Positions 7,297 to 49,938 of a stretch of DNA of 64,000 bases are shown here, one piece after another; positions within the stretch are counted from its first letter, which is position 1, and each line of letters opens with the position of its first letter. Both the position numbers and the translations under genes were made by a program. The notes beneath the pieces were generated by a model. That model had not been told where the DNA came from, made no database searches, and saw only the letters and a program-made list of their open reading frames with translations. Origin of the DNA: an uncultured Spirochaetota bacterium (GTDB taxonomy: Bacteria > Spirochaetota > Spirochaetia > SZUA-6 > Fen-1364); assembly GCA_963781885.1 (NCBI GenBank), contig CAWAHW010000002.1, forward strand, positions 320,001 to 384,000, written 5' to 3'.

Positions 7297-7444
7297 GCCG
7301 GCGCCCCGTCACGCCGGGTGCATTCCCCTTGCCCGCCATTTCAGAAGGGCTGGTCAAACCGGCGTTCGCGTAGTACACATTTGCATCGGCGCGGTGCGCC
7401 CCGGCGCGATCCTGGCATCAGCAGATTCAAACGGCGGTGAATCG

Positions 7445-20255: not shown

Positions 20256-20259
20256 CAGC

Positions 20260-21342
20260 ATGCGCATTGCAGGCAGAGAGCTCAGCCGCAAGGACATCGA
20301 ACGCCACGTGGGCAGCCTGCGGCAGATCGGTGGCGTGCGGCCCATCGAGCTGGTGGAAGGCAGGGCGCGGGGCGTCCGGTGCTTCCAGGTGGAGACGGGC
20401 TCGGGGCTCGGCTTCACGGTGGTTGCCGACAGGGGCCTCGACATAGCCGACTGCACCTTCAAGGGTGTGAACCTCGTCTATCATGCCCCGGGAGGCATCG
20501 CGCATCCCTCCTACCACGACCCGTCGGGCTCGGAGTGGCTGCGCGTCTTTTTCGGCGGCCTCCTCACCACGTGCGGTCTCACCTATTTCGGCGCCCCGGG
20601 CCGGGACGGCGCATCCGAGCTCGGTTTGCACGGAAGGTATTCGGCCCTGCCGGCGGCGCGCGTCTCCGACGACTCCCGCTGGGAGGGGGACGAGTACGTG
20701 CTTTCCGTCACTGGCTGCGTGGAGGAGGCCGTGCTCTTTGGTGACAGGCTGCGCCTGACGCGCAGCATCACCACCCATCTTGGATCGAAGAGCATCCGCA
20801 TCCTCGACCGGGTGGAGAACTTCGGCGCGAAAGAGTCTCCCTTCACGATCCTCTACCACGTGAATCCCGGGTACCCGCTTCTTGGTCCGGAAAGCAGGAT
20901 ATACGTCTCCACCACGGGCATCGAGCCCTATGACGAGCATGCGGCAGAGGGCCTCCCGGCGGCCGATACAGTGCAGGAGCCGGACCCCGCATATCGCGAG
21001 ATGAACTTCCTGCACACCGCGGCCGCCGATGCAGGAGGCTTTGCGCGCGCAGCGCTCGTCAACCGGGACCTTGCAGGAGGCCTGGGCCTCGCGCTGGCGT
21101 GGCGCATCGACAGTCTCCCGTTTCTCAGCGAATGGAAAATGCTCGCACCGGGAGAATACGTCGTGGGCCTGGAGCCCGTGAATACGAAGATCGCAAATCG
21201 CGCCGCGCTGCGCGCAGCCGGAAGGCTGCCCCTGCTCGCCGCGGGCGAATCGCGCACGATGGAGCTCGAGCTCAGCGTTTTGGAAGGGGATGAAATCGAT
21301 GGTTTCGCGGCGGAGGTGGCGCGGATCCGCGCCCGGGCGTAA
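20260..21342 (+). CDS. Aldose 1-epimerase-superfamily protein (DUF4432-like)
   Basis: DRGLDI, GGLLTTCG, LHGR, LYHVNPGYP, YVVGLEP. Confidence 0.85.
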   Translation: MRIAGRELSRKDIERHVGSLRQIGGVRPIELVEGRARGVRCFQVETGSGLGFTVVADRGLDIADCTFKGVNLVYHAPGGIAHPSYHDPSGSEWLRVFFGGLLTTCGLTYFGAPGRDGASELGLHGRYSALPAARVSDDSRWEGDEYVLSVTGCVEEAVLFGDRLRLTRSITTHLGSKSIRILDRVENFGAKESPFTILYHVNPGYPLLGPESRIYVSTTGIEPYDEHAAEGLPAADTVQEPDPAYREMNFLHTAAADAGGFARAALVNRDLAGGLGLALAWRIDSLPFLSEWKMLAPGEYVVGLEPVNTKIANRAALRAAGRLPLLAAGESRTMELELSVLEGDEIDGFAAEVARIRARA

Positions 21343-21351
21343 GGGGTCGAG

Positions 21352-21380
21352 TTGCCTTTCGCGCCGCGCGGTGCTACACT
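21352..21380 (+). promoter_or_regulatory. Sigma70-type promoter with extended -10
   Basis: TTGCCT-N17-TACACT, TG at the extended position. Confidence 0.65.
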
Positions 21381-21420
21381 TTTATGGCGGAAGCGGACGT
21401 GCTTCCGAACAGGAGAAAGA

Positions 21421-21468
21421 ATGGAACACGACGACAACAGTGGGTGGTGTCCTGTCGTGCCCGCCTAG
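21421..21468 (+). CDS. Putative 15-aa leader peptide MEHDDNSGWCPVVPA
   Basis: AGGAG 5 nt before the ATG; lies between the promoter and the membrane-protein gene; followed by a hairpin. Confidence 0.45.
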   Translation: MEHDDNSGWCPVVPA

Positions 21469-21516
21469 GGGATGAGCTTCATCTCCCGGCGGGCCTGCGC
21501 CGATCGGAGGTGGAGC

Positions 21517-22155
21517 ATGATGAAAAAAACGGCATTTCTCGACGTCTTCGTGGTGAGCGGTTTCATCACGGGTTTTTTCTATGGATTTCTGAATCCTCTG
21601 TACATCAGCATGATCCTTTCCCGTCTTGACGGCAGGATCATCGCCCTGGGGTCCTTCATGTCCTCCGCGTTCCCCGTGCTCGTGGGGGCGCTCCTGGGCA
21701 GCCGTCGGGTCTCCGCGCGTCTCTACGCGATTCTGCCGGTGGTCATGGTTCTGGAGCTCGCGGCAGCGGCAGGAGCCGCCCTGGTGGCGTTTTTCGACAT
21801 CGTTGCGTATTACCTGGTGTCGATGTTCGTCCTGGGCGTGTTCTCCTCCTGCGTCGTGTATCTGCTCCAGAAGATCAAGGAATCGCGCTATCGCCGCAAC
21901 CGCGCGGCATTCGATCGGCGCTGCGACATGGCCGACGCGCTCGGCCTGGTCCTCGGTTCCGCCTTGAGTCTCGTGGGAATGGGTTTTCTCACCAATCCGC
22001 GTGCCGTGGCCCTGGCTGGCTGCGCGCAGACGGCCGTCGTCTACGGCCTTTTCCTCATCCTGTACCGCAAGGTTCCCACCCGCAGGGAAAGGCGCGCGGA
22101 CGAGGAGGCCCACCCATGTGCGCCGCGCCTGAGCATGTTGCCAATTGCCGCGTGA
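21517..22155 (+). CDS. Uncharacterised membrane protein, about 6 TM (half-MFS-like)
   Basis: About six hydrophobic segments; SD GGAGG before ATG 21517. Confidence 0.72.
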   Translation: MMKKTAFLDVFVVSGFITGFFYGFLNPLYISMILSRLDGRIIALGSFMSSAFPVLVGALLGSRRVSARLYAILPVVMVLELAAAAGAALVAFFDIVAYYLVSMFVLGVFSSCVVYLLQKIKESRYRRNRAAFDRRCDMADALGLVLGSALSLVGMGFLTNPRAVALAGCAQTAVVYGLFLILYRKVPTRRERRADEEAHPCAPRLSMLPIAA

Positions 22156-22185
22156 GCGGCCTGACGTAAAGGAACGGGATGACTT

Positions 22186-24030
22186 TCAGAGACCCAGGAC
22201 CGCCAGGGCGTACTGCGTCTTTCCCAGCGGCGTGGAAAGCTGGACGCCTGCCACGGTGCCGCGAAGCGCCTCGAAAAGCTCGCGCGCGATGGCGGCCCCT
22301 TCTTCCAGGGCCGACTCTTTCGTGTCGCAGAGGCCCATGCGCGTGATGATGGAATCCGGCACCTCGACGCCCGGGACCTCGTTTTTCATGAACTCGGCCA
22401 TCCGCAGGCTCACGAGGGGCCAGATGCCCGATATGACCGGGATGCGGCGCAGCCCGCTCGCCTTGTCGAGGAAGCGGAAAAGAGGCGCCGCGTCGAAAAG
22501 GGGCTGCGTGATCACGAACTCCGCGCCCGCGTCCAGCTTCCACTTGAAGCGATCCAGCTCCCTCTCCGGGTTCAGGGCGCTCGGATTGAGCGCCACGCCA
22601 TAACAGAGCCCGATGGGACCCCCGACGGGGTTGTGGCCCAGGTCAAAGCCGTGGTTGAGCTGGTTCACCATGTTGCAGAGGCCGATGGCATCGATATCGA
22701 ACACGGCCGTGGCGTCAGGATACGTGCCCATATTCGGCGGATCGCCCGTGACGAGCAGAAGGTTCCGTATGCCCAGCGCATGCGCGCCCAGTATTTCGGC
22801 CTGGAGCGCGAGCAGGTTCTTGTCCTTGCAGGTGACGTGGGGGATCGTCTCGATGCCCGCCCGCGTCTGGATCACGGCAGAGGCGGCCACGGCCCCCATC
22901 TTGGCCTGGGCGCGCGGGCTGTCGGGCACATTGACGGCGTCGATGCCTTTCTCTTTCAGGGTCTTCGCGCTCGCCACGAGCTTCTCAAGATCGAAGCCCT
23001 TCGGCGGAACGAGCTCCACGCAGGACACGAAATCCCCCCGGGCAAGGCGCGCCGCCCACCCGCTTTTCTTTTCCAGCGGAATGGGGTCCATCGCGCGATC
23101 GTCCAGCACGAAGCTGATGCGCTCCTTTGGCAGGCCGGGGGTGAGGGCGCGTATCTCGCTGCGCATCTCGCGGATGTGCGCCGGCGTCGTGCCGCAGCAT
23201 CCCCCGACGATGAGCACGCCGGTCTGGATCATGCGCTTCGCGTACCGTGCCATGTAGCGCGGCGTGGTCTGGTAGATGTTGCGTCCGTCGACATTGACGG
23301 GAACGCCCGCGTTGGGCTGGACGCAGAGCGGCCGGCGGGCGACGCGGATCATTCTTTCGGCGGTCTCCAGCATGATGCGCGGACCGCCCGTGCAGTTCAG
23401 GCCGATGACGTCCGGTGCAAGGGCGTCCAGCGCCGCCGTGAACGCCTCCGGCTCCGTGCCGTACAGCGACGTGCCTTCACCGTTGATCGTGAGGGAGGCC
23501 ACGAGCGGCAGGCTGCACGCAGCGCGCACGCCGCGGATGGCCGCCGTGAGCTCCGCCACGTCCACGAATGTCTCCAGCACGATGAGGTCCGCGCCCGCCG
23601 CCGCTAGGTGCCCCGCCTGCTGGCGAAACAGCTCCTGCGCTTCTTCAACGGAGAGGGCGCCCAGCGGCGACAGCTTCATCCCGAGCGGCCCGATGGATCC
23701 CGCGATCCAGGTGGAGTCCGCGCGCCGCGACTCCTCGATGGCCTGCCGCGCGAGCCGCACGGCCTGCTCGTTGATGGCGGCGAAACGGTCCGCGAGCCCG
23801 GCGGCGCGCAGCTTCGGGATGCCGGCGCCCCAGCTGTTTGTCGTGATCACGTCGGCGCCCGCCTCCAGGTAGTCGTGGTGGATGCCGAGCACGACGCGCG
23901 GATCGGAGAGGCACACCTCCTCGAAGACGCGGTTCAGGAAGATGCCGCGCTCGTAGAGCATGGTGCCCATGGCGCCGTCGAAGAGGATGGTTTCCCGCCT
24001 TTCCAGGCGGGTGGCAAAATCGACTTTCAT
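22186..24030 (-). CDS. yitJ: Bifunctional homocysteine S-methyltransferase / methylenetetrahydrofolate reductase (YitJ-like)
   Basis: DGAMGT, GLNC, GGCCGTTPAHI; C-terminal MTHFR ELVPPKG, TGDPP, FVITQP. Confidence 0.92.
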   Translation of the reverse strand: MKVDFATRLERRETILFDGAMGTMLYERGIFLNRVFEEVCLSDPRVVLGIHHDYLEAGADVITTNSWGAGIPKLRAAGLADRFAAINEQAVRLARQAIEESRRADSTWIAGSIGPLGMKLSPLGALSVEEAQELFRQQAGHLAAAGADLIVLETFVDVAELTAAIRGVRAACSLPLVASLTINGEGTSLYGTEPEAFTAALDALAPDVIGLNCTGGPRIMLETAERMIRVARRPLCVQPNAGVPVNVDGRNIYQTTPRYMARYAKRMIQTGVLIVGGCCGTTPAHIREMRSEIRALTPGLPKERISFVLDDRAMDPIPLEKKSGWAARLARGDFVSCVELVPPKGFDLEKLVASAKTLKEKGIDAVNVPDSPRAQAKMGAVAASAVIQTRAGIETIPHVTCKDKNLLALQAEILGAHALGIRNLLLVTGDPPNMGTYPDATAVFDIDAIGLCNMVNQLNHGFDLGHNPVGGPIGLCYGVALNPSALNPERELDRFKWKLDAGAEFVITQPLFDAAPLFRFLDKASGLRRIPVISGIWPLVSLRMAEFMKNEVPGVEVPDSIITRMGLCDTKESALEEGAAIARELFEALRGTVAGVQLSTPLGKTQYALAVLGL

Positions 24031-24049
24031 TATTCCTCCGCGGAATGCG

Positions 24050-26377
24050 TCAGGAACGGCCGGCCCGTGCCGCCGCGCCCGCGTTTTTTTCCTTGTGTGT
24101 CACCCGCATGTCGGCTGCCGCGGCCACCAGGGCGCGGAGGGCAGGCTCCACTTCCTTCCACTGGCGCGTCTTCAGGCCGCAGTCGGGGTTGACCCAGAGC
24201 TGCTCCGCCGGCAGGACCTCCAGCGCTTTTGTGAGGAGCCCGTGTATCTCCTGCTCCGTCGGAACGCGCGGCGAGTGGATGTCGTAGACGCCGGGACCGA
24301 TCTCGTTCGGGTAGCGGAAGCTCTTGAAGGCGCCCAGCAGCTCCATGCGCGACCTTGCCGATTCGATGGAAAGCACGTCGGCGTCCATGGCTGCGATGGA
24401 AGGCAGGATCTCGTTGAACTCCGAGTAGCACATGTGGGTGTGGATCTGCGTGGCATCCGCGACGCCCGAGGATGCCAGGCGGAAGCTCTCCACCGCCCAT
24501 TCCAAGTAGGCCGCGCGGTCCGCCGCGCGCAGGGGAAGCCCTTCCCGCAGGGCGGGCTCGTCGATCTGGATGATGCGGATGCCGGCCGCTTCCAGGTCCG
24601 TCACTTCGTCCCGGATGGCAAGGGCGATCTGCCGGCAGGTGGCGGCGCGCGGCTGGTCGTCCCGCACGAACGACCACTGGAGGATCGTCACCGGTCCCGT
24701 GAGCATGCCCTTCATCGGCCGCGAAGTGAGGGACTGGGCGTAGGCGGACCAGCGCACCGTCATGGGCGCGGGACGCTCCACGTCGCCGTAGATGACCGGG
24801 GGCTTCACGCAGCGGGAGCCATAGCTCTGCACCCAGCCGTTCTTCGTGAAGGCGAAACCGGAAAGCATCTCGCCGAAGTATTCCACCATGTCAGTGCGCT
24901 CGCTCTCGCCGTGGACAAGGACGTCCAGGCCCATCTCTTCCTGCGTGCGCACCGTGCGCGCGATCTCCTGCTCGAGGAAGCGCTCGTAGTCCTCCCGGGA
25001 GATGTTTCCGCGGCGGAAATCGGCCCGGTGGGCGCGCACGTCACCCGTCTGCGGGAAGCTGCCGATGGTGGTCGTCGGGAAGAGGGGGAGCTTGATGGTG
25101 GCGGATTGAATCGTGCGGCGGTCCTCGTAGGGCGTGCCGCGGCGCGACATGGCCGGCGTGAGGGATGCGATCCGCGCCCGCACCGCCGCTCGCGTCACGC
25201 GCGGAGAAGCCGCGCGGCTTTGGAGCGCGCGCGTGTTCGCCTGAAGCGCGGCGCTCACGCTTGCGCCGCCGTTGTTGAGCGCCTTCGCGATGACGGCAAT
25301 CTCGTCGACCTTCTGCCGCGCAAATGACAGCCAGCCCCGCAGCTCGGGGTCCAGCTCCGTTTCAAGCTGGAGGTCCTCGGGACAATGCAGGAGCGAGCAG
25401 GAGGGCGCCACGATGAGACGATCCGGACCCAGAGCCCCCGCGACTTTCTCCGCGGTCCGCAGAGCCGCCCCGAGGTCCGCCTTCCAGATGTTGCGGCCGT
25501 CCACGAGACCGAGCGACACCGCGATGTCCCGCGGTTTCGCGGCGACGATCGCCTCTGCCTGCCCCGGTCCTCGGACCAGGTCCAGATGCAGTCCTGCCAC
25601 GGGCAGCTTCAGGACCAGATCCATATTCTCCTTGAGATCGCCAAAATAGGTCGTGAGCATGATCCGCACGGATGACGCCCTTGCCAGGCGGCCATAGACG
25701 TCGGCAAAGGCCTTTTTCCTGCGTGCATCGAGGTCGGTGACGAGCACGGGCTCGTCCATCTGCACCCACATCGCGCCTTGGGAAGCGAGCCTCTTCAGCG
25801 CCTCTTCATATACCGGGAGGACCGCATCGAGCAGGTCCAAGGGATTCGACCTGCCATCGGCGGACTTTGCCAGGGAGAGGAACGTCACGGGGCCCAGGAG
25901 CACCGGCCGCGTGTCGATCCCGAGCGACCTCGCCTCGACAAAATGATCGATCACCCGGGTCGAGGAGAGCGTGAAGCGCATGCGCGGCTCGACTTCCGGA
26001 ACGATGTAATGGTAATTCGTATCGAACCACTTCGTCATTTCCAGTGCCGGCACGTCGACGCCCGCTTCCTGGCGCCCGCGTGCCATGGCGAAATACACCG
26101 GCAGGCCGACGACCCCCGCGGGCGCCCCGTAGCGGGCGGGCACCGCGCCGAGCATGACGGCCGTGTCGAGCACGTGGTCGTACAGGGAGAAGTCCCCCGA
26201 GGGCACGAAGGTGATGCCGGCATCGCGCACGGTCTTCCAGTGATGCGCGCGGATCTGCGCCGTTTCCTCGTGCAACGCCTGTTCGCCGATCTGGGACGCC
26301 CAGTATCGCTCCAGTGCCCTCTTCAGCTCACGCCCCGCGCCGATCCGCGGGTACCCCAGCAAAGCGGTTTGTATCAT
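24050..26377 (-). CDS. metE: Cobalamin-independent methionine synthase
   Basis: LGYPRIG, KWFDTNYHYIVPE, TTIGSFPQT, HTHMCYSEF, WVNPDCGLKTR. Confidence 0.97.
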   Translation of the reverse strand: MIQTALLGYPRIGAGRELKRALERYWASQIGEQALHEETAQIRAHHWKTVRDAGITFVPSGDFSLYDHVLDTAVMLGAVPARYGAPAGVVGLPVYFAMARGRQEAGVDVPALEMTKWFDTNYHYIVPEVEPRMRFTLSSTRVIDHFVEARSLGIDTRPVLLGPVTFLSLAKSADGRSNPLDLLDAVLPVYEEALKRLASQGAMWVQMDEPVLVTDLDARRKKAFADVYGRLARASSVRIMLTTYFGDLKENMDLVLKLPVAGLHLDLVRGPGQAEAIVAAKPRDIAVSLGLVDGRNIWKADLGAALRTAEKVAGALGPDRLIVAPSCSLLHCPEDLQLETELDPELRGWLSFARQKVDEIAVIAKALNNGGASVSAALQANTRALQSRAASPRVTRAAVRARIASLTPAMSRRGTPYEDRRTIQSATIKLPLFPTTTIGSFPQTGDVRAHRADFRRGNISREDYERFLEQEIARTVRTQEEMGLDVLVHGESERTDMVEYFGEMLSGFAFTKNGWVQSYGSRCVKPPVIYGDVERPAPMTVRWSAYAQSLTSRPMKGMLTGPVTILQWSFVRDDQPRAATCRQIALAIRDEVTDLEAAGIRIIQIDEPALREGLPLRAADRAAYLEWAVESFRLASSGVADATQIHTHMCYSEFNEILPSIAAMDADVLSIESARSRMELLGAFKSFRYPNEIGPGVYDIHSPRVPTEQEIHGLLTKALEVLPAEQLWVNPDCGLKTRQWKEVEPALRALVAAAADMRVTHKEKNAGAAARAGRS

Positions 26378-26387
26378 AGGTGAAAGT

Positions 26388-26417
26388 AAGATAGGCACGT
26401 GAAGCGTTGGCAGTCAA
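26388..26417 (-). promoter_or_regulatory. Sigma70-type promoter of metE, 10 nt from the ATG
   Basis: TTGACT-N18-TATCTT-N10-ATG; no SD. Confidence 0.55.
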
Positions 26418-26544
26418 CGGAAACCGGGCCGTGCCTCGCCGCCTTTTCATCGCCTTCCGTGCGGCACAGGTCCTGCAATGGCGGCGCTGCGCCGGGCATG
26501 CGGCGGCGCGTCGTCAGCTCCGCGCTGAAATGGACGGCCTGCGT

Positions 26545-27399
26545 CTAGAATGAGGTGACGGCCTCCAGGGGAACAGCGGGATAGACCTGCCCCGGCACCG
26601 GCGGCATCGGATTGTACACCCAGTCGATTTCCGCGCACCCGCAGGCGAAGCCGCCCAGACGGCGGATGCCCTTGTACGTTCCCCGCACCAGGACGTCCTC
26701 CATGTTGAGCGTCATGCCGAAAATGGCAAGCGGGGCGCCTGCCGGTATCTCTTCCAGCTCTTCGCGATAGGCACGGAGCGAAAAGATGACCCGGTCATGG
26801 GATGCCGTCTGCGCCTGCAGAATGGGGACGATGCGCGGGAATCCATCCGCTCCAATCCACGAGGCAAACTTCAGATTCCCCATCTTGCCCAGCAGCGTAC
26901 GCGTCCACGGGTTGAGGGCCTTGCAGCCTCGGGAAGCGCCGGCGGCTGCACGCGCTGCGGCTGTTGCCAGGGAGGCTGCGACGATGCGTCCCATGGGCAG
27001 GCTCTCCCTGCCCCCGTGCGACACGAGATCGAGATAGTAGACCGTGTGGATTCCGAAATAGGCGTTGTAGCGGAACATCGGCTCGTTGTTGTAGTCGTCG
27101 TAGTCGGGACCCGCCTTCTCCGTGTGGGTATAGACGGCCTGTCCGCGCCATAGCTCCCGCTGGAGCGTCATGGCGAGAAAGCCCGTCTTGGGGTTTCTGC
27201 CGACATTGCCCTTGCTCGTGCCCTCGGTGAATTGCCCGAACGAAAGCCGTCTGGAGGAGGCCGCGCGGATGCTGCTCAGGAGCGTGAGGTGGGGGAGCCC
27301 GGCGTCGTTCACCGTGGCAAGCATGCCGATCTTCATCGCCGGCCGGAGCCCTTCGATGTCTGCGTCCTGGAATGTCGTCTGCTGCTTTTCTCCGCTCAT
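26545..27399 (-). CDS. Tandem pyridoxamine-5'-phosphate-oxidase-like (split-barrel) protein
   Basis: Two similar halves: KIGMLATVNDAGLPHLTLL... and LKFASWIGADGFPRIVPI...; ATGA overlap with the activase stop. Confidence 0.75.
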   Translation of the reverse strand: MSGEKQQTTFQDADIEGLRPAMKIGMLATVNDAGLPHLTLLSSIRAASSRRLSFGQFTEGTSKGNVGRNPKTGFLAMTLQRELWRGQAVYTHTEKAGPDYDDYNNEPMFRYNAYFGIHTVYYLDLVSHGGRESLPMGRIVAASLATAAARAAAGASRGCKALNPWTRTLLGKMGNLKFASWIGADGFPRIVPILQAQTASHDRVIFSLRAYREELEEIPAGAPLAIFGMTLNMEDVLVRGTYKGIRRLGGFACGCAEIDWVYNPMPPVPGQVYPAVPLEAVTSF

Positions 27400-28403
27400 G
27401 ATCGTACGGTCTCCTCTATCTCGGTATGCGCCGGCCGCGTGGCGCCGGTGACGGCGACGCGCGATGGATCCACGCCCGACGCCCGCGCCCATCCTGCAAT
27501 CTCTTCGAGCTGCGATGTTTCGTACAACGGAGTTTCCGCGTACGCCCACTCCATTCCCAGCCGCCGGTACTGCTCCCGGCAGAGGTTGTTGAACGCGCAC
27601 AGCTCCCATCGCTCCAGCATGCCGTCCAGGTGCCGCGCGATGAAACGCCCGATGCCGTTGAGATTCTCCCGTGTCGCCGTTGCGCCGGGAATCAACGGCG
27701 TCCGAATCCAGAGCCGTACCCCCGCTTCCCCCGTCTCCCGGAGCCTTCGCGCAAGGAGCATGTTTTGCAGGATGGGCTCGTTCGGTTGGCCGGTGAAGGC
27801 GATGTGGGATTCCCGGTCCATGATCTTCAGGTCGAAGAGGAGGACATCAGCCTCGTTCAGCGCCCGCGTGAAAACGTCCGCGGCGGCGAATCCGCAGGTA
27901 TCAAGCGCCGTGCCGATGCCCTTTTCCTTGAGACGCCGCAGGAGCGCAGTCGTAAAAACAGACTGGGCAAGCGGCTCTCCGCCCGAAAGCGTCACCCCGC
28001 CACCCGACGATTCGTAGTAGGCCCTGTCCTTGGAAAGCTCCTCCACCAGCGCCGGAACGCTTACCCGTCTGCCCAGGAGCTCCAGCGCATTGGTCGGGCA
28101 TTCCTCGACGCAGGCGCCGCAGCCGTCGCAGCGCGCGCGATCCAGGAGGAATCCAGTGGGGCCGAAGGAGATGCAGCGGGTCGGGCAGGCCTTTTCACAC
28201 GAATGACAGCCCATGCAGCGCGTGGCATACCACTGAAGCTGCGGCTGGCCGGAGATGCTCTCGGGGTTGTGGCACCAGCGGCAGGAGAGCGGGCATCGCT
28301 TGAAAAAGACCGTCGAGCGTATCCCGGGGCCGTCCTCCGTCGAGAGGCGCTGGACGTGGAGGATGAGACCGGTGGGCTCGCCTTCGGCTTGCACGCTGCT
28401 CAC
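27396..28403 (-). CDS. Glycyl-radical enzyme activating protein (radical SAM with 2x[4Fe-4S] insert)
   Basis: EDGPGIRSTVFFK, CPLSCRWCHNPES, CMGCHSCEKACP, CDGCGACVEECP, SGGEP, RTPLIPG; GTG start overlaps the GRE stop. Confidence 0.93.
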   Translation of the reverse strand: MSSVQAEGEPTGLILHVQRLSTEDGPGIRSTVFFKRCPLSCRWCHNPESISGQPQLQWYATRCMGCHSCEKACPTRCISFGPTGFLLDRARCDGCGACVEECPTNALELLGRRVSVPALVEELSKDRAYYESSGGGVTLSGGEPLAQSVFTTALLRRLKEKGIGTALDTCGFAAADVFTRALNEADVLLFDLKIMDRESHIAFTGQPNEPILQNMLLARRLRETGEAGVRLWIRTPLIPGATATRENLNGIGRFIARHLDGMLERWELCAFNNLCREQYRRLGMEWAYAETPLYETSQLEEIAGWARASGVDPSRVAVTGATRPAHTEIEETVRS

Positions 28404-30934
28404 CTCAGCGCGTGCGATTCGCGGGCGATGATCTCGTCCTGCAGCTCTTTCCCCACGGTCGTGAAATAGGCGTTGTAGCCCGTCACGCGCACCAGGAGGT
28501 GGCGGTAGTTTTCCGGGTGCGCCTGCGCGTCTTTCAGCATCTCCGCGTCGATCATGTTGATCTGCAGCGCCGAGCCTCCGTTGCGGGCATAGCCGCGCAG
28601 GTATGCGGTAAGCTTCGCGCGATGCTCGGGGTCCCGCGCCATGGTGGGGTTGAAACTGATGGTGTGGCTGCCGCCATTGGGCAGAAGGTTTTCCGTGGCA
28701 AAGCGAACCCCGTCCTTCTCCGCCTCCCCGGCGAGGACCTTGCCCACGGAGTTCGCATTGGCGGTCGGGCCGTTCGTGTCCGCTCCATTGGAGGGGCACA
28801 GCGCGTTGGAGAGGAACCTGCCCTTCGGACGCCCGTCGGGGCTCGCCGCCAGGATGAAACCGTCGGAGACCCAGTAGTTCCAGCTCAGCATGCCGGGTCT
28901 GAACTGCCGGTGCGTCGAGCGCGTCCGGTATCGCCATGTCTCCGCCGTCCACAGCTCCATGACGCGCCGCGCCATGGCGTCCGCCTCGTCGTCGTCACGG
29001 CCGTACTTCGGGGCCTTGTTGACCGCCAGGGCCTGCAGCTTTTCGTGGCCGACCCAGTTGTCCGCGAGCGCGGCGACAAGCTCCTCCATGGTACAGGCGG
29101 CGCGGTCGTAGACGAGGTACTTCACGGCGAGGAGCGAATCCACCGTTGTCGCGAATGTGACGGCCTCTATCGTCACGAAGCCTATCTCCGCGCCGCCCTG
29201 GGTCACGTCGAGGCCCTTGTCGACGCAGCCGCGCACGAGGCAGGAGAGATACGGCGTCGGCGAGAACCGCGCGCGCACGGATTCGCTCGATTCGTAGAGG
29301 TCCACCAGCTTCTTCGTGATGAAGCGGTTCTGCGCGGCATATGCCGACCAGAACTGGTCGAATGTGCGGAATGCGGCAGGATCGCCGGTGTCGGGGCCGC
29401 TTCTCTTTCGGGGATCTGTTTTCCCCGTCATGGGATCGACAAAAGGCACCAGATCATGGCCGCCCGTCAGTGCCAGCTCCACCGCCTTGAGAAGATTCAG
29501 GTTCACGTCCACCGTGCCCGACCTGTCGTTGCCCGGCATCGTGTTCTCCAGGCATCCCACCGAGGCATAGTCCGCCACGTTTCGGGGCGTGATCAGCTTT
29601 TCCATGTCCGCAAGACGCGCCTCCAGGAGCATGCCCGCCTCCGAGCGCTCGTCGAAGTTGAGGAGGAACGGCGAGCCCTGGCTGCTTGCGATCATGTCGA
29701 CGAGCTTGTCCAGGAGCCTGTCCGGCGAGGCCCGATGCAGCCGCACGTTCGGCTTGGGCTCCAGGATGGGCGACATCTCATCGATCACCTCGAGAATGGC
29801 ATAGGTCAGGTCATTCGTCATATCGCTCCCGTCCGGGCCGCGGCCCGAGAGGGAGAGGAGCTGCCCGTAGCCCGCCGTGATGCCCTGGTGCGCGCCGGTG
29901 CGTATCATGGCATCATAGGCCGTGTTGCAGTGGATCCAGAAGCATTTGAGTATTTCCTTGCCGCGCTCACGGTCCATTCCCTGGGCAAGGGACCTTTGCC
30001 AGTACGGCAGGAGGTACTGGTCGATGCGGCCGAAGGACAGGCCGGGGCCCGGATAGTTCTCGTCGCTCATGACGAGCATGTGGGTGAGCCACAGGCTCTG
30101 CACGGCCTCCCAGAAAGTGCTCGCCGGGCCCCAGGGGACAAGGGCGAGGTTCCTCGCCATCTCGCTGAGCTCCCGTGCGCGCGCGGGATCCTCTGCCGTG
30201 GCAGCGAGGCCCCGGCAGACCGTCTCGTAGCGTGCGGCCAGCTCCCGGGCCGTACCGGCGGCGATGAGCATGCCCCGAAGCTGCGCGGCGCGGCTGCCGT
30301 TTTTCTCCCGGGCCGGCAGTGCGTCCAGTGCCTGCTCGATTTCGACGGTCACGCCGCGCCATCCATTCTTGAGGATGCGCGGATAATCGGGGATCAGGTG
30401 TCCGCTTGTCGCGCCGGCATTTCCGTAGCCGTGATCGTGCGCCCATTTCACTGCCTGCCGCGTGCCTGCTTGTCCCACGACCAGGCGGTCGAACTCCGCC
30501 GCTTCCTTTCGCGTCATGCACGTGGAGGTCATGACATTGAATCGCGCACCGGCGATCAGATCACCGGGCAGCAGCTCGCAGGGCACATGGCGCGTCATGA
30601 CGTCCCGCAGGAACCAGGCGCGGCGCTCCGGCAGGCTCCACGACCAGAAGTGGGGATCGAGCTCCACGCGGCGTGCGGTCTGGCGGAAAGCTGCGCGAAA
30701 AGTCGGAAAGAACGTATAGGTTTCCGGCACGATATAGAAGGTGAGCTCGTTGAACTGGAAGTCCCACGGTGTGCCGGTGGTCCACGAGGTGAACTCGTTG
30801 TTCCATGCGCGCGCCGTGCCGCGGAAATAGTAGTCGCGCAGCCAGGCGATCCGCGGCGAAAGGTTGGAAGGGGTCTTGATTGCGTGCGGGCGTTCGGAGG
30901 GCGCACGGGACGTGGCAGTGACGTTTCCGGCCAT
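28400..30934 (-). CDS. Glycyl radical enzyme, PFL superfamily, substrate unknown
   Basis: Cys loop YASVGCLENT, Gly loop LLVRVTGYNAYF, SFGRIDQYL, ASPDGR; SD GGAGGA before ATG 30934. Confidence 0.93.
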   Translation of the reverse strand: MAGNVTATSRAPSERPHAIKTPSNLSPRIAWLRDYYFRGTARAWNNEFTSWTTGTPWDFQFNELTFYIVPETYTFFPTFRAAFRQTARRVELDPHFWSWSLPERRAWFLRDVMTRHVPCELLPGDLIAGARFNVMTSTCMTRKEAAEFDRLVVGQAGTRQAVKWAHDHGYGNAGATSGHLIPDYPRILKNGWRGVTVEIEQALDALPAREKNGSRAAQLRGMLIAAGTARELAARYETVCRGLAATAEDPARARELSEMARNLALVPWGPASTFWEAVQSLWLTHMLVMSDENYPGPGLSFGRIDQYLLPYWQRSLAQGMDRERGKEILKCFWIHCNTAYDAMIRTGAHQGITAGYGQLLSLSGRGPDGSDMTNDLTYAILEVIDEMSPILEPKPNVRLHRASPDRLLDKLVDMIASSQGSPFLLNFDERSEAGMLLEARLADMEKLITPRNVADYASVGCLENTMPGNDRSGTVDVNLNLLKAVELALTGGHDLVPFVDPMTGKTDPRKRSGPDTGDPAAFRTFDQFWSAYAAQNRFITKKLVDLYESSESVRARFSPTPYLSCLVRGCVDKGLDVTQGGAEIGFVTIEAVTFATTVDSLLAVKYLVYDRAACTMEELVAALADNWVGHEKLQALAVNKAPKYGRDDDEADAMARRVMELWTAETWRYRTRSTHRQFRPGMLSWNYWVSDGFILAASPDGRPKGRFLSNALCPSNGADTNGPTANANSVGKVLAGEAEKDGVRFATENLLPNGGSHTISFNPTMARDPEHRAKLTAYLRGYARNGGSALQINMIDAEMLKDAQAHPENYRHLLVRVTGYNAYFTTVGKELQDEIIARESHALR

Positions 30935-30967
30935 GGGATGATCCTCCAGATGACGTGATTCTTTTCC

Positions 30968-30996
30968 ACTATAAACCCGCCGGCGAGAGGGCGCAA
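30968..30996 (-). promoter_or_regulatory. Sigma70-type promoter of the GRE operon
   Basis: TTGCGC-N17-TATAGT. Confidence 0.65.
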
Positions 30997-31058
30997 GAAA
31001 AAAGGGGTCCGGCGCTTGCATGCCGGTCCGTAAGGGGCGCTGTCTTGGAAGAGACATG

Positions 31059-31087
31059 TTGACCGAATGATGACGCGGGTGTACATT
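31059..31087 (+). promoter_or_regulatory. Sigma70-type promoter of copA
   Basis: TTGACC-N17-TACATT. Confidence 0.7.
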
Positions 31088-31093
31088 CTTTCT

Positions 31094-31123
31094 GTGACCC
31101 CACCCCTGGAGGGGAGGGGTCAC
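31094..31123. promoter_or_regulatory. CsoR-type operator (C-tract/G-tract palindrome)
   Basis: GTGACCCC-A-CCCCT-GG-AGGGG-A-GGGGTCAC at the predicted +1 of an operon encoding CsoR. Confidence 0.72.
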
Positions 31124-31135
31124 GGGGGGAGCGTC

Positions 31136-33634
31136 ATGAAGACCCAGGATATCACGGTCACCGGCATGACTTGCGCATCGTGCTCCGCGCGGGTGGAGAA
31201 GGTCGTCGGAAGGCTCGAAGGGGTCGCAAAAGCGAGCGTGAACCTTGCGACGGAGAAGCTGCATCTCGAGTACGACGAATCGCTCCTTGCGGCGGGCGCC
31301 GTGCGAAAGGCGGTGGAGGCGGCGGGGTACGGCCTTCGCGAAGAGGCAGCGGCGAAGCACGTGACGATCCCCATCGAAGGCATGACGTGCGCCTCGTGTG
31401 TCGCGCGCATCGAGAAGGTCGTGGGCAGACTCGACGGCGTCGCCGGGGTTTCCGTCAATCTCGCAACGGAGAGGGCGGACGTCACCTATGCTCCAGAGAC
31501 GGTCCGTCTCTCCGCCATCAAGAAGGCAATCACCGACGCGGGGTATACACCGCGGGAAATCGATGCGACCGAAACCGTGGACCAGGACGCGGCGCGCAAG
31601 GCGGCCGAGATACGCCTCCTGTGGACGAAGTTCATCGTCGCCGCCGCGGTGGCGGTGCCCCTCCTCTATCTCGCCATGGGGCACATGATCCCGGCGCTGA
31701 AGTTTCCGCTCCCGTGGTTCCTGGACCCCATGATGCATCCGCTTGCCTTCGCGCTGGTGCAGGTGGCGCTCGTGATACCTGCCATTGTCGCCGGCAATCG
31801 CTTCTATAGAGTGGGCGGCAAGGCACTCTGGCACCTGGCGCCGAACATGGATTCCCTCATCGCCATTGGAACCGCTGCCGCGGTGCTCTACAGCCTCTAT
31901 TCGACCTGGAGGATCGCGGCGGGCGACGTCTCCGCGGTGAGCAATCTCTATTTCGAGACTGCGGCGGTCATCATCGCCCTGATCACGCTGGGAAAAACGC
32001 TGGAAAGCGTCTCCAAGGGGCGCACGTCCCAGGCCATCAAGAAGCTCATGGGCCTGGCGCCGAAGACGGCGGTGGTGATCCACGACGGCGTGGAGAGCGA
32101 GATACCGATCGCCGAGGTGGAGGTGGGCGATCTCGTGCGGGTCCGTCCCGGCGGGAAGGTGCCCGTGGACGGCGACGTGGTGGATGGCTACACGTCGGTG
32201 GACGAATCGATGCTCACGGGGGAGAGCATACCCGTGGAGAAAAAGGCGGGTGACCCTGTCACCGGGGCGAGCATCAACAAGAACGGCACCATCACATTCC
32301 GCGCGACGCGTGTCGGCGGCGACACTGCCCTGGCCCAGATCATCAAGCTCGTCGAGCAGGCGCAGGGAAGCAAGGCGCCCATCGCGCGGCTCGCCGACGT
32401 CGTCTCGGGCTATTTCGTGCCCATCGTGATGCTCGTCGCGCTGGCGGCAGGCGCGGCGTGGCTCTTGAGCGGCCAGAGCGTGGCATTCAGCATGAGCATC
32501 TTCACCGCGGTGCTCGTGATCGCCTGCCCGTGCGCGCTGGGGCTTGCCACGCCCACGGCCATCATGGTGGGGACGGGCCGGGGGGCAGAGATGGGAATTC
32601 TCATCAAGGGCGGGGCGGCGCTGGAAGAGACGCACAGGATCCGCACCGTGATCCTCGACAAGACGGGCACCATCACGGAGGGAGCGCCTGTCGTCACGGA
32701 CATCGCCCTTTCAAACGGCACATCCGAAGATGCCTTGCTGCAGCTCGCGGCTTCCGCGGAGAAGGGCTCCGAGCACCCCCTGGGGGATGCAGTCGTGCAG
32801 GGCGCGGAAAGGCGGAACCTTCCGCTCCTGCCTCTGGAGAGCTTCCAGGCGCTGCCGGGTCTTGGAATCGAGGCGCGCATCGACGGCAAGGCCGTTCTCC
32901 TGGGGAACGAAAAGTTGATGGCGGAGCGGAGCATCGACCTGGGCAGCCTGCGTCCCGCCGCGGCCCTTCTGGCGGAGGCGGGGAAGACACCGATGTTCGT
33001 CGCCGTGGACCGGATGACCGCCGGCGTGATTGCCGTTGCCGATGTGCCGAAGCAGACGAGCGCGCCGGCGATCGCAGAGCTCCGCGCACTGGGCCTGGAG
33101 GTCGTCATGATCACGGGCGACAACGAGAGAACGGCGCAGGCCGTTGCGCGGCAGGTCGGCGTGGACAGGGTATACGCCGGGGTGCTGCCGCACCAGAAGG
33201 CGGAGGCGGTGAGGCGCATCCAGGCCGAGGGAGCCGGGGGCCGGGTCGCCATGGTCGGGGACGGCATCAACGACGCGGCGGCGCTGGCGCAGGCCGACAT
33301 CGGCATCGCCATCGGATCGGGCACGGACGTCGCCATCGAATCCGCCGACATCGTGCTCATGAAGAGCGACCTTTCCGACGTGGCAGGGGCCATCCGCCTG
33401 AGCCGGGCCACCATCCGCACGATCAGGCAGAATCTCTTCTGGGCTTTCTGCTACAACGTGCTGGGCATCCCGATTGCCGCGGGTGTCCTCCACCTTTTTG
33501 GAGGCCCGCTCCTGAACCCCATCTTCGCCGCCGCGGCCATGTCGCTGAGCTCGGTGTCCGTGGTGAGCAACGCCCTTCGGCTACGCCGATTCTCCGCGCA
33601 CCGGGGCATGGAGGTCGCGTATGGATCACGGTAG
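31136..33634 (+). CDS. copA: Cu(I)-translocating P1B-type ATPase
   Basis: Two GMTCASC HMA domains, TGES, CPC, DKTGT, SEHPL, GDGIND, YN and MSLSS. Confidence 0.96.
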
Positions 33635-33896
33635 TCATGAATCCCACAAGGCAATGGCGCTCCTGAAGACGGCCCGCGGCCAGGTGGACGGCGTGCTGCG
33701 CATGGTGGAGGAGGACCGCTATTGCATCGACGTGGCGAAACAGGTCCTGGCCACCATCGCCCTTCTGAAGAAGGCGAACATCGTGATCCTCCGCCAGCAC
33801 ATGGACACGTGCGTGAAGGACGCGATCCGCACCGACAAGGGCGCGGAAAAGATCGACGAGATTTCGATGATTCTCGAGACCTATCTGGAGAGATGA
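33621..33896 (+). CDS. csoR: Copper-sensing repressor
   Basis: [18 protein letters not shown]...HMDTCV (Cys, His, Cys ligands). Confidence 0.9.
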
Positions 33897-33906
33897 GGAG
33901 GAACAC

Positions 33907-34071
33907 ATGGCAGCATCGACAGGGAAAGTGAAGGATCCCGTGTGCGGCATGACGATCGACGCCGCCACCGCGGCGGCAAAGCGGAGCCATGACGGGAAGG
34001 ACTACTACTTCTGCGCGCAGGGCTGCGCCCGCGCCTTCGATTCCGATCCCGCGAAATACGCGGTGAAGTAG
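33907..34071 (+). CDS. YHS/TRASH domain protein
   Basis: Not in the ORF track: MAASTGKVKDPVCGMTID...YYFCAQGCARAFDSDPAKY; SD GAGGAGG. Confidence 0.9.
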   Translation: MAASTGKVKDPVCGMTIDAATAAAKRSHDGKDYYFCAQGCARAFDSDPAKYAVK

Positions 34072-34078
34072 GTCCGCT

Positions 34079-34681
34079 CTAGCCTTTCGAGCCGATCGTG
34101 GCGAGCACGCCGCCGGCCACGATGCGCCGCTGTGACCTGATGTCCAGTCCGGCACCCGTGAAGAGGGCGGCAATCTCGGCGCGCGTGTGGATGCGCTGGT
34201 GGGCGATGATGCCTCCCGCGAGCGACGGCAGGACGCCATCGGCGAGGCAGAAGAAGCCATTCGGCCGCAGCACGCGCGCGATCTCCCGCAGGCCTGCCGC
34301 CTGGTCATGCCAGTGATGGAAAGAGACGGTGCTGAAGGCGACGTCCACGGAAGAGTCGGGGAGGGGCACCGCCTCGCCCCTTCCGACGTGGAAAGAGGCC
34401 GAAGGCGTCAGGAGCCGCGCAAGCTCGATCATGCCTTCCGCCGGGTCCACGCCCACATGATGAGCGGTCGGCCATCGCGCGGAGGCCCGCCGGAGCAACC
34501 GGCCCGTGCCGCAGCCGACATCGAGGACGCTCTCCGGCACCCGGCCGTCCAGCTGCGCCTCCACGAGATTCAGGACTGCCCGATGCACGGGGCCGAAAAA
34601 GAAGAACTGCCCGAGGGAACGTTCGTACGTGCGCGACCAGCGGTGGAACTTGTCGACGTCCTCTCTGGAAGGTGTCACCAT
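34079..34681 (-). CDS. Class I SAM-dependent methyltransferase
   Basis: VLDVGCGTG, GVDP, SFHHW, RVLRPNG. Confidence 0.9.
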   Translation of the reverse strand: MVTPSREDVDKFHRWSRTYERSLGQFFFFGPVHRAVLNLVEAQLDGRVPESVLDVGCGTGRLLRRASARWPTAHHVGVDPAEGMIELARLLTPSASFHVGRGEAVPLPDSSVDVAFSTVSFHHWHDQAAGLREIARVLRPNGFFCLADGVLPSLAGGIIAHQRIHTRAEIAALFTGAGLDIRSQRRIVAGGVLATIGSKG

Positions 34682-34725
34682 GGCGTAAAGGTACCGATTT
34701 TTGCGTTCAGCCGTCCGCCGCGCCG

Positions 34726-36758
34726 TCACGAGCCGTCATGCGGGCGAAGGACCTCGGTGCCCGGAAGATGCGCGGGGTATTCCTCGCGGATGTCCAGCGC
34801 CGCACCCAGGGTGGAGGATGCAACCCACGAAGCGGCACTGCCGTAGGAGCCCTTGCCCCCCACCAGGTGGTGCATGTAGTCCCAGTCGGTGTGATTATAT
34901 TGTTCGGGCTGGTAGCCGACGAAGTCGGGGCCGCAGTTGAGCGGCCGCTCGGGCGTGGAGATCATCTGGCCGCAGAAACCCATCAGGTCGTGCGCATAAT
35001 CCGCCCAGCAAGGCTCCGAAAGTGCCGAGGAAAGACGGAGGAAGTCCAGGGCGATCATCATCCCGTACGGATCGAGGTGATGGTGCGCGACTGACACCGT
35101 CGTTCCACCGTACGTGTGGAAGCCCATCCGCCCCAGGGGACTCTGCGCGGAGAAAGGCACGTCCCACGTGAACTGCCAGCCCAGGCAGAACGCGGCTGCT
35201 TCCCGCGCAGCTTCGATGAGCGCCGGATCCCCTGTCACGCGGTGGAGGAGCAGGAAGGCGCGCAGGAGGGCGTGCCCTGCCTCCTTGTCCGTGCACTCGG
35301 CGTCCAGCGTGTCGAAGGTGAAGCGCTGCGGCTTCACCGCGGCATTAATGAAGTAGTCCGCCGCCCGACGCGCGGCGGGCAGCCAGGATCGGTCGCCCAT
35401 GCGGATGAGCTCCGCCATGAGCCAGATGATGTAGGCGCCATTCGTGCCGCGCGCATCGAGCAACTCTCCGGTCGGCGACCAGAATCGGCCGAAATTCCCG
35501 TCGGGCAGTTGATGCGCCGCGAAGAAGTCCGCGATGCGCCGTGCGTGATCGAGCCACCTTTCATCCCGGCCGCTGCCGGCACGATCGTAGAGGAGGGCAT
35601 ACTGCTGCGCCGACTCTCCCATGCACCGGGTGGATGCCACGGCAGCAAGACCGCGGCCGGGGAAAAAGAAGCCGCCGAAGCGCCGGGCATGAATGCTGTA
35701 GTCGTCGAATGCCAGACCGCTGGGAAGCTCTCCGCCGAGCATGAATGAAGCAATCTCCCGCGCAGCCGCCGGCAGGTCGGCGTCGCGGTATTCCCGGCCC
35801 AGCCGATGGAAACTTGCCGCCGCTTCCAGGCCTTTTGCAAGGAAAGATCCGCCGAGGAAATCGCCGAAAAAGCGCTGGAGGATGGGCGGCAGGCGCAGCT
35901 CCCGCATGATGCCTGTCGCTGCGCCCTTCCGGTACAACGCGTGCGTCCGCAGCCAATGCGTTTTCAGCGCGATGAAACGATTCCAGTCGACGCCGGCCCA
36001 GAGGTCGAGTCCTTCCGGCCTGCAGCGGCGCCGCGCAGCGGCAAAGACCTCCCGATAGGGGATCCGGGAGCCCGGGGAGTGCAGGAGGATGAATGCCCTT
36101 TCGAATCGGAAGCCGGGGCCGGGTGAAACCACGCGCGGCGCGGCCCGTGCAGACCGCCGATGAGGACTCCTTTCTCCCGGTAGGACGATGGGCTTTCTTC
36201 ATACGGCGTGGCGATTTCGAGCTCCACGAAGCCCTGCCGCGACTTCGAACGGATGCTTCCGATCTCTTCCTCCGTGCGCGCGGGAAGGGAGAAGAACGCC
36301 CAGGCCCCGGCGTCCCCGGCAAGGATGGCGCAGGATGGAATCGGGCACCGGTCCTCTCGAAAGGACCATCCGACGTCCAGACCGCCGCGGGGGAACCTGC
36401 CGGCGCCTTCGTGATTGCCGTCCACCATGACCGCGGGCACCACCCATTCGGAAAAGGTACCTTCAAGCTCCACGACGCAGGGCAGACGGACAGGGGCCCG
36501 TGTGGCGAGCTCCCATACGCGATGGATCTCCAGCGCCCCGTCGGCAGCGGTGCACAGCTCGTCGCGCACCGTGCCCAAGGGTCCTTCGGCGCGCACGCCA
36601 CCGCCCTCCACGGTCACGGTGCGTGGCGGGATCCTGCCGCGCGGCGTGATCAGCTCGTAAAGGATGACGACCGCAGGTCCTTTGGCAAGATGCACGCGGA
36701 CGGCCGTGCCGTCCCGGACAGCCTCGATTCTGAAGCTCACCGGCGCCCCTCCCGACAT
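34726..36758 (-). CDS. Uncharacterised protein, probable (alpha/alpha)6 glycosidase-like enzyme; one -1 indel near 36127
   Basis: Beta-rich N-half and helical-hairpin C-half (WLDHARRIADFF, WLPAARRAADYF, LDAECTDKEAG); frames join by restoring one T in a T run. Fold is inferred. Confidence 0.6.
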
Positions 36759-48485: not shown

Positions 48486-48514
48486 TTGACGGCTGAAAAT
48501 GAATGATTTATGAT
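48486..48514 (+). promoter_or_regulatory. Sigma70-type promoter of the CUT1 ABC operon
   Basis: TTGACG-N17-TATGAT. Confidence 0.75.
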
Positions 48515-48560
48515 AACACGATTTTCAACTATTTCTTTTTACTAGAGAGGAGGTCTCTGG

Positions 48561-49895: not shown

Positions 49896-49908
49896 CCTGA
49901 ATTCCGGT

Positions 49909-49938
49909 GTGGGCGGACACTGTCCGCCCACTTTTTTT
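49909..49938 (+). terminator. Hairpin with T7 after the SBP gene
   Basis: GTGGGCGGACA-C-TGTCCGCCCAC-TTTTTTT. Confidence 0.8.

Follow-up and report, generated by a model that had tools for sequence, protein, structure and literature searches.

Glycyl radical enzymes (GREs) perform some of the hardest anaerobic reactions, and newly assigned GRE families have each opened a pathway (choline, hydroxyproline, isethionate, and anhydroglucitol). The excerpted text of a June 2026 review (PMC13450708) describes three multisubunit GREs: hydroxyphenylacetate decarboxylase (HPAD), with a gamma subunit; benzylsuccinate synthase (BSS), with beta and gamma subunits; and methylalkylsuccinate synthase, with beta, gamma, and delta subunits. 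According to the same text, their small subunits cover hydrophobic surface, aid solubility, and serve as gates for the channel or for the glycyl radical domain, and the only GRE accessory subunits listed are high-potential iron-sulfur protein (HiPIP)-like [4Fe-4S] or rubredoxin-like iron proteins. Here we describe a three-gene operon in a 64,000-nucleotide (nt) stretch of an uncultured Spirochaetota genome (contig CAWAHW010000002.1, positions 320,001 to 384,000; hereafter the window). It encodes a GRE, an activase, and a 284-amino-acid (aa) protein of two split β-barrels, which we call the partner. Our preferred reading makes the partner a GRE subunit of a new kind: it is probable that the operon encodes a heteromeric, CXE-type (dehydratase-like) GRE of an uncharacterized family, with the split-barrel protein as its obligate subunit.

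The window GRE can be set beside three groups of described proteins. With the GRE 1,2-eliminases and isomerases (glycerol dehydratase [GD], propanediol dehydratase, HypD, CutC, and PflD/YbiW) it shares a fold (Z = 29 to 30, 672 to 711 residues aligned), a CXE Cys loop, an RVxGY Gly loop, a His at the position of GD His164, and a ferredoxin-insert activase. It differs from them in being 22 to 28% identical, below their family cut-offs, and without their substrate residues (for GD, without some of them), and in having 175 aromatic-rich N-terminal residues unmatched in Pfam; its family, moreover, always occurs with the partner, whereas the review, as excerpted, lists a partner for none of them (PMC13450708). 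Like the multisubunit GREs, it combines a catalytic chain with a dedicated small protein in one operon, and we propose the same role for that protein. However, the partner is a double split barrel without a conserved Cys rather than an iron protein, and the chain resembles an eliminase more than a decarboxylase or hydroalkylase, with Z = 26 for HPAD and 25.5 for BSS. Each half of the partner superposes on split barrels of the pyridoxamine 5′-phosphate oxidase (PNPOx)-like and flavin mononucleotide (FMN)-binding type (HupZ, the COG3576 protein, the D. vulgaris FMN-binding protein, flavin/deazaflavin oxidoreductases [FDORs], and PhdC). Those proteins are single-barrel homodimers, whereas the partner consists of two fused barrels that share no sequence similarity, and it adds a conserved loop and tail through which binding to the GRE is predicted. 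The closest published case is LssP, described as a putative protein of the PNPOx type with no assigned role and expressed from the limonenylsuccinate synthase operon; judged by its description in the excerpted source (PMC12583861), that operon encodes a fumarate-adding GRE together with many other genes. Full-text literature searches, whose coverage excludes supplementary neighborhood tables, returned no description of this GRE family or of a GRE-partner pairing, and a term search of the review text found no "FMN," "PNPOx," or "pyridoxamine."

The features of the operon are as follows.

28400-30934, minus strand: GRE gene, 844 aa, ATG start, domains PF02901 and PF01228
27396-28403, minus strand: activase gene, 335 aa, GTG start overlapping the GRE stop codon, radical-SAM and Fer4 domains
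26545-27399, minus strand: partner gene (tandem split barrel, predicted GRE subunit), 284 aa, ATG overlapping the activase stop codon
30942-30947, minus strand: ribosome-binding site GGAGGA, 7 nt ahead of the GRE start codon
30968-30996, minus strand: candidate promoter TTGCGC-17 nt-TATAGT, read by eye, with a −35 hexamer that matches the consensus at 3/6 positions

The three genes are co-directional in the order GRE, activase, partner, and both junctions read as the original prediction, which was made from the sequence alone, had claimed: a GTGA overlap joins the GRE stop to the activase start (...AGGTGAGC...) and an ATGA overlap joins the activase stop to the partner start (...TCATGAGC...). 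GC content around the locus is about 0.65, and long spurious open frames are common. A 1411-aa open frame containing the GRE was rejected as a high-GC artifact that extends upstream of the true start; the start adopted here is supported by homologs of 825 to 847 aa that cover 98 to 100% of the query. Within the operon there is no gene for a shell protein, a transporter, or an aldehyde dehydrogenase, as had been noted from its reading frames.

The pairing of GRE and partner is old and, in the sampled genomes, exceptionless. All three genes occur in the same order in 20 of the 22 loci fetched with the partner, which span at least five phyla (taxa as titled: Spirochaetota, Chloroflexota/Anaerolineae, Leptospirales, Firestonebacteria, Syntrophaceae, Bacteroidales, and "delta proteobacterium"). 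The two exceptions are a locus cut at its contig start (L003) and one (L005) that has GRE and partner with no activase match, a CrtI-family oxidoreductase standing in the activase's usual place between them. Across these phyla, identity is higher for the GRE (65 to 92%) than for the activase (45 to 83%) or the partner (43 to 87%). Among 401 sampled Spirochaetota genomes, 57 contained a match to the partner, and 56 of those also contained one to the GRE (E ≤ 1e-150); in the apparent exception, G307, the last 27 residues of the GRE lie at a contig end. Among 301 sampled genomes from the class of genome G401 (which holds locus L002, titled Anaerolineae), partner and GRE were each matched in 35, with 34 in common, and inspection showed the full trio in each of the two exceptions. 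In all, 93 of the 702 sampled genomes have either gene (57 Spirochaetota and 36 of the 301), and, with contig ends inspected, 93 of 93 carry both. No partner was found outside a GRE context among the fetched loci. The conserved GRE-activase-PNPOx linkage that had been predicted is thus borne out, and these counts show none of the separate occurrence that had been named as evidence against it.

Most of the positives in the class of G401, together with two Spirochaetota genomes, form a divergent clade in which the GRE is about 799 aa long and 48 to 52% identical to that of the window, and the partner is about 264 aa long and 23 to 36% identical. The complete trio occurs in 12 of 12 loci fetched from this clade. 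The clade retains H179, C461, E463, D476, R679, and G819 of the GRE as well as the FRYNAYxGI and PPxPG motifs of the partner. The partner family is compact. Of 8000 candidates scored in a homolog search, 2056 proteins passed E ≤ 0.001, and the best 120 of these are 51 to 87% identical and nearly all about 284 aa long. A profile search of 1.84 billion representatives gave 446 clusters at E ≤ 0.001 (317 at 1e-10 and 138 at 1e-30), and the best 150 of these are 81 to 359 aa long, mostly about 260 to 300 aa or fragments. A search of the ESM Atlas with the partner returned only clusters of its own family, either unnamed or named after PNPOx.

The second line of evidence is a predicted complex. GRE residues 1 to 715 and the partner, both supplied as alignments, were modeled in three runs with three controls. 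The interaction prediction score from aligned errors (ipSAE) was 0.85 (runs 0.84, 0.87, and 0.85), and all three controls scored 0.00; in the calibration of this score, the mark was attained by 58 of the 80 solved complexes and by 2 of the 110 mismatched pairs, an approximate guide since our own alignments were supplied. Contacts agreed by at least 78% between runs, with a predicted local distance difference test (pLDDT) score of at least 85 for the partner. It is unlikely that the model recalls a known complex, because the review, as excerpted, contains no similar solved GRE assembly (PMC13450708). On the partner side, the predicted interface comprises loop 105-120, tail 260-274, and residues 57-60, 163-166, and 230-236; on the GRE side it comprises residues 35-123 (the aromatic-rich region), 342-348, 501-502, and 686-693. 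The interface residues of the partner are its most conserved (mean identity 0.793 versus 0.588 elsewhere, a difference reached in 0 of 2000 permutations).

Comparison between clades points the same way. In the divergent clade, GRE interface positions are identical to those of the window at 13 of 43 sites, compared with 312 of 653 elsewhere. At GRE 82 and partner 265, a small residue is paired with Met in 18 of 19 clade-A pairs and Tyr with Gly in 10 of 13 clade-B pairs, and at GRE 77 and partner 234, Lys/Glu occurs in one clade-A pair and the reverse, Glu/Lys, in another. These changes agree with compensating substitutions at predicted contacts, although they are few events and no statistical proof.

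The partner itself is a tandem of split barrels at the level of fold. Its AlphaFold2 (AF2) model (pLDDT 85.6, predicted template modeling [TM] score 0.85) shows two split β-barrels of the PNPOx/FMN-binding type joined by a helix. Foldseek returned 77 PDB matches at E ≤ 1e-3, the best being 7kpz (1.1e-6), and each covers one half of the protein. The halves superpose on barrels of about 120 to 150 aa (E from 1e-6 to 1e-4, target TM 0.5 to 0.76), with a target TM of 0.65 to 0.76 for the top single-barrel matches (ranks 1 to 8). Its fold neighbors are HupZ (top), a COG3576 protein, F420 reductases, MSMEG_3380, Rv1155, the prenylated-FMN maturase PhdC, and the D. vulgaris FMN-binding protein. The claim that the 284-aa protein consists of two PNPOx-like halves therefore holds for the fold, as seen with AF2 and Foldseek, but is undetectable by sequence. 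The halves show no detectable similarity to each other and no internal duplication (BLASTP E = 40), and matches to PDB chain sequences are at chance level with the single sequence and no better than E = 0.0066 with a profile. The weak profile matches are to Rv2991 and COG3576 "flavin-nucleotide-binding" proteins over residues 7-81. PF01243 falls below its cut-off in this copy (17.6 versus 28.1 bits, E = 0.0052, residues 19-87 only); a precomputed match to it is present in many partner homologs.

The conservation of the partner is concentrated where its own fold is least certain. Its most conserved segments are loop 105-120 (FRYNAYFGIH; mean identity 0.887) and tail 260-274 (WVYNPMPPVPGQ; 0.856), and both are of low confidence in the monomer model, a pattern typical of segments that fold onto another protein. 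Among 42 homologs there is no invariant Cys. The N-terminal barrel carries a conserved F-T-x-G-x-S-K...N-P stretch. Within it, F57, G60, and K63 do not vary across the family, and conservation is at least 90% at S62 and P70. This motif is not kept in the divergent clade, where T58, S62, and K63 become L, T, and E.

The catalytic chain matches PF02901 (E = 3.2e-118, residues 176-686) and, at its C terminus, PF01228 (E = 5.8e-22). It has a single-Cys loop, SVGCLE (C461 and E463), and a Gly loop, RVTGY (G819), which is invariant across 40 GRE homologs. No Pfam model matched its first 175 residues, which are aromatic-rich from about residue 20 to 125 (22 of the 81 residues from 30 to 110, or 27%, are Trp, Phe, or Tyr, versus 7.9% from 126 to 844). 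Translation, Pfam, and composition confirm these features of the 844-aa GRE as they had been described from the sequence. The activase carries radical-SAM (S-adenosylmethionine) and Fer4 domains, with cysteines arranged in a CX3CX2C motif plus two ferredoxin-type motifs, so that the ferredoxin insert reported earlier is present in two-cluster form. It scores 296.9 bits against the generic GRE-activase model TIGR02494 (cut-off 174.35) and lies below the cut-off of every equivalog activase model.

Placement of the GRE relative to characterized members used hidden Markov model (HMM) scores and structural Z-scores in place of a full phylogeny. The chain lies below every curated GRE family cut-off in NCBIfam: it scores 406.8 bits against the broad PFL2-3 subfamily model TIGR01774 (cut-off 678.2), 355 against HypD (NF043068; 1100), 348.1 against HpsG (1000), 345.3 against HpfG (1000), 301.2 against CutC (TIGR04394; 1050), 169 against HPAD (NF033715; 1150), and 90.4 against pyruvate formate lyase (PFL; TIGR01255; 994). 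Against PDB sequences, the best E-values are all similar, from 3e-84 (IseG) to about 1e-70. The AF2 model of the GRE (pLDDT 77.8) is of low confidence at residues 296-298, 344-357, 461-465, and 683-729, and both the Cys and Gly loops are low-confidence. It matches propanediol and glycerol dehydratases, CutC, PFL2, PflD, and HypD in a tie (Z = 29 to 30, 22 to 28% identity), the best match being 5i2g (Z = 30.2 over 705 residues, root mean square deviation 3.3), ahead of C-S lyases (Z about 27), decarboxylases (about 26), BSS (25.5), PFL (21), and NrdD (about 15). Because the Z-scores are tied and the HMM scores fall below cut-off, we read the enzyme as eliminase-like and clustering with no characterized member; the data support that it belongs to no characterized class. 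In source databases, family members are labeled only "pyruvate formate lyase family protein," "formate C-acetyltransferase," "trans-4-hydroxy-L-proline dehydratase," or "hypothetical," so that they are either placed no more closely than in the pyruvate formate lyase family or misnamed. The same genome (G000) holds a second GRE (locus L025, G000:C3:183185-184891; 34% identical over residues 249-844); no partner-like gene was found elsewhere in that genome.

Active-site correspondences were taken from HMMER alignments to solved GREs; for IseG, the position of the catalytic Cys implied a shift of 20 in the numbering. C461 aligns to the catalytic Cys of IseG, CutC, HypD, and GD, and H179, C461, and E463 align to H164, C433, and E435 of GD. 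At the GD His164 position, where the window GRE has H179, IseG has Gln and CutC has Asp. GD H281 and S282 align to P297 and G298, and GD D447 aligns to V475, with D476 adjacent; we take His281, Ser282, and Asp447 to be further substrate residues of GD. A CutC assignment was rejected, as the position of CutC Asp216, which falls at the GD His164 site, is H179, and the score is 301 against a cut-off of 1050. HypD was likewise rejected: the position of its Asp278, presumably a functional residue, is P297, and the score is 355 against 1100. PFL is excluded by the single Cys of the VGCLE loop where PFL would have a Cys-Cys pair, by a score of 90.4 against 994, and by Z = 21. An HPAD-type decarboxylase does not fit a score of 169 against 1150 or an operon with no gene for an Fe-S small subunit. 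The sulfonate anchor of IseG (Arg187, Gln191, and Arg676; PMC13450708, as excerpted) is kept at one of three positions (A175, H179, and R679), and an isethionate or dihydroxypropanesulfonate (DHPS) C-S lyase (IseG, IslA, or HpsG) was rejected on this ground. The loop C461-L-E463 has the form of the CXE motif defined for GRE eliminases and isomerases, and His164 of GD is the proton donor to the leaving hydroxyl (both from the excerpted text of PMC13450708). Given these alignments, the simplest interpretation is that C-H abstraction takes place at a carbinol carbon, after which a base assists departure of the neighboring group, the substrate being small and bearing an anionic group. The original prediction of an uncharacterized GRE with a new reaction therefore stands as to class, with HMM scores and residue alignment showing no clustering with a known class and the absence of the substrate residues of IseG/IslA, CutC, and HypD and, in part, of GD, but its active site looks like that of a CXE eliminase or dehydratase.

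We therefore propose the following scheme for the operon as a heteromeric CXE-type GRE. The dedicated radical SAM activase would install the radical on Gly819, and during turnover the radical would move from Gly819 to Cys461. Cys461 could then take a hydrogen from the carbinol carbon of the substrate, the hydroxyl being deprotonated by Glu463 of the CXE motif, while the neighboring leaving group would depart with the aid of His179, at the GD His164 position. Together, the CXE and His179 steps would amount to dehydratase- or eliminase-like chemistry. The substrate is probably small and anionic and may be held in part by Arg679. Rather than a separate pathway enzyme, the partner would be an obligate docking subunit that binds through its FRYNAYxGI loop, the barrel surfaces 57-60, 163-166, and 230-236, and the C-terminal PPxPG tail. 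Its docking site would be the family-specific, aromatic-rich N-terminal region of the GRE plus residues 342-348 and 686-693. In the GRE model, the Cys loop is among the stretches of low confidence, as are other positions aligned to substrate or active-site positions of solved GREs. Since the predicted contacts at 342-348 and 686-693 lie at or beside these stretches, we infer that the partner orders or gates the entrance; it may stabilize the catalytic chain, gate the substrate entrance or complete it, or do both, much as the Fe-S subunits of HPAD and BSS do.

Several observations weigh against an obligate subunit of this kind. In the divergent clade, unrelated and heterogeneous genes often separate activase and partner, and in several genomes the two lie on different contigs. 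An activase-partner fusion of 624 aa (P0243, at L013:3187-5061, Firestonebacteria) points to the activase, not the GRE, as the functional neighbor; it is the sole fused form among the longer proteins searched and is weak evidence either way. In this fusion the activase stop codon is missing, which could be real or an assembly error. The ipSAE is the model's own confidence and not a measurement, the GRE was modeled without its glycyl radical domain and second protomer, whose place the partner may occupy, and the examples of covariation rest on one or two evolutionary events. On the GRE side, interface positions are no more conserved than the rest of an already very conserved protein (0.719 versus 0.723). 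The T-x3-S-K...N-P stretch of the partner resembles the FMN-phosphate motif of PNPOx, so that a cofactor role is possible. Finally, no conserved catabolic gene or transporter that would indicate a pathway surrounds the fetched loci. The genes found beside them serve unrelated housekeeping functions (MinCD, RodA, an acyltransferase, GATase, an ABC1 kinase, and methyltransferases).

Of the three roles first proposed for the partner (electron donation to the activase, product processing, and a structural subunit), the complex model (ipSAE 0.85) favors the last. It is unlikely that the partner is instead a flavin (FMN or deazaflavin) redox subunit that passes electrons to or from the GRE active site in a net redox reaction, or that reduces the clusters of the activase. 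Such a role would suit the FMN- and F420-binding fold neighbors (the D. vulgaris FMN-binding protein, MSMEG_3380, Rv1155, and PhdC), the weak profile matches to Rv2991 and COG3576 over residues 7-81, and the activase-partner fusion P0243. It would also suit the conservation of F57, G60, K63, S62, and P70 in a stretch that we take to resemble the PNPOx phosphate-binding motif, and the fact that residues 57-60 face the GRE in the complex model. Yet PF01243 is below cut-off in this copy, T58, S62, and K63 are replaced by L, T, and E in the divergent clade, and the top fold matches include HupZ, which is not a flavoprotein. Moreover, all characterized PFL-like GRE reactions are redox-neutral and proceed without an electron donor, according to the excerpted review (PMC13450708).

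A free-standing enzyme that converts the GRE product (e.g., a reactive aldehyde, enamine, or imine) without forming a stable complex seems quite improbable. The partner gene is last in the operon, a frequent site of product-handling enzymes, and in the divergent clade it can lie several kilobases from the GRE, with an aminotransferase between them in two loci. But such an enzyme would not be expected to show a strong, specific predicted interface on its most conserved and otherwise disordered segments, a 1:1 co-occurrence in 93 genomes, and a compact family (446 clusters) with no other context among the fetched loci. We regard as very improbable a ligand carrier whose barrel pocket presents a bulky substrate or cofactor-like molecule (a tetrapyrrole, flavin, or nucleotide-like compound) to the GRE. 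Heme-binding HupZ proteins are the top fold matches, the surface turned toward the GRE includes residues 57-60, on the pocket side of the N-terminal barrel, as well as the conserved loop 107-118, and no transporter or downstream enzyme is conserved. However, His179, the CXE motif, and Arg679 indicate that the substrate, as in known eliminases, is small and polar, and the sub-cut-off regulator matches (NanR, PdhR, LldR, GlcC, and FadR) are to sensors of small acids. A related and tentative idea, to which we give little weight, is that the partner carries a flavin-type cofactor or substrate at its GRE-facing side, with an active site built from both proteins. If so, this would be the first GRE to couple radical chemistry to a second, non-iron cofactor subunit, with a net redox or otherwise new reaction type, present in about one-eighth of the sampled Spirochaetota and class-of-G401 genomes.

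The surroundings of the fetched loci bear on the nature of the substrate. A GntR/FCD-family regulator gene lies directly upstream of the GRE in 10 of the 22 loci, with best NCBIfam matches to NanR, PdhR, LldR, GlcC, and FadR, all far below cut-off. We take these GntR/FCD members to be sensors of small acids or carboxylates, and a regulator of this family would fit a small anionic substrate. A CrtI-family FAD oxidoreductase (TIGR02734, 328 bits) is found beside or near the operon in 4 of the 22 loci (L005:3049-4551, L009:9013-10590, L012:8097-9428, and L014:13776-15275). In two divergent-clade loci, a class-III aminotransferase gene lies between activase and partner (L036:4058-5314 and L038:3974-5227), a possible hint of an amine or carbonyl substrate in that clade; L038 also holds DUF6206 and Ntn-hydrolase-like genes.

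Transcription of the operon had been attributed to a single sigma70 promoter. The site TTGCGC-17-TATAGT is readable and plausible as the operon promoter, but it is a weak consensus match and the weakest part of the original observation. It is absent from the output of a consensus promoter scan because its −35 hexamer matches at 3/6. Just upstream of this candidate promoter, at window positions 31009-31026 on the minus strand, a GC-rich hairpin (CCGGC...GCCGG) is followed by a T run, ACCCCTTTTT. The hairpin sits in a short divergent intergenic region shared with an 855-aa gene (31067-33634, plus strand) whose product, by eye, looks like a P-type ATPase of the copper type, with two metal-binding CxxC repeats at its N terminus. 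An Rfam search of window positions 20000-36000 gave zero matches. Among listed sequencing runs, the window is represented in two DNA runs from a single study (shares 0.35 and 0.05) and in no RNA run. Directly downstream of the operon (22186-26398, minus strand) lie metE, encoding a 782-aa cobalamin-independent methionine synthase, and a gene for a 614-aa homocysteine S-methyltransferase/methylenetetrahydrofolate reductase (MTHFR) fusion; the gap between the partner gene and metE is 146 nt and contains a promoter-like site of its own at 26417-26388. Among the 22 fetched loci, a related open reading frame of about 784 aa lies 3′ of the partner gene only in L001, the closest relative, so the adjacency to SAM-consuming met genes looks coincidental. 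Elsewhere in the window, positions 48001-52000 and 4001-8000 are lower in GC (0.545 to 0.557 and 0.574 to 0.582, respectively, versus about 0.65) and may be acquired DNA or RNA genes.

If the split-barrel protein is indeed a subunit, this family would become the fourth multisubunit GRE and the first among them to have a non-iron subunit. It would thereby bear on the open question of what purpose GRE accessory subunits serve. The GRE-partner family is abundant in uncultured fermenters, including genomes titled from fen, peat, and digester, and its three genes form a compact, portable module.

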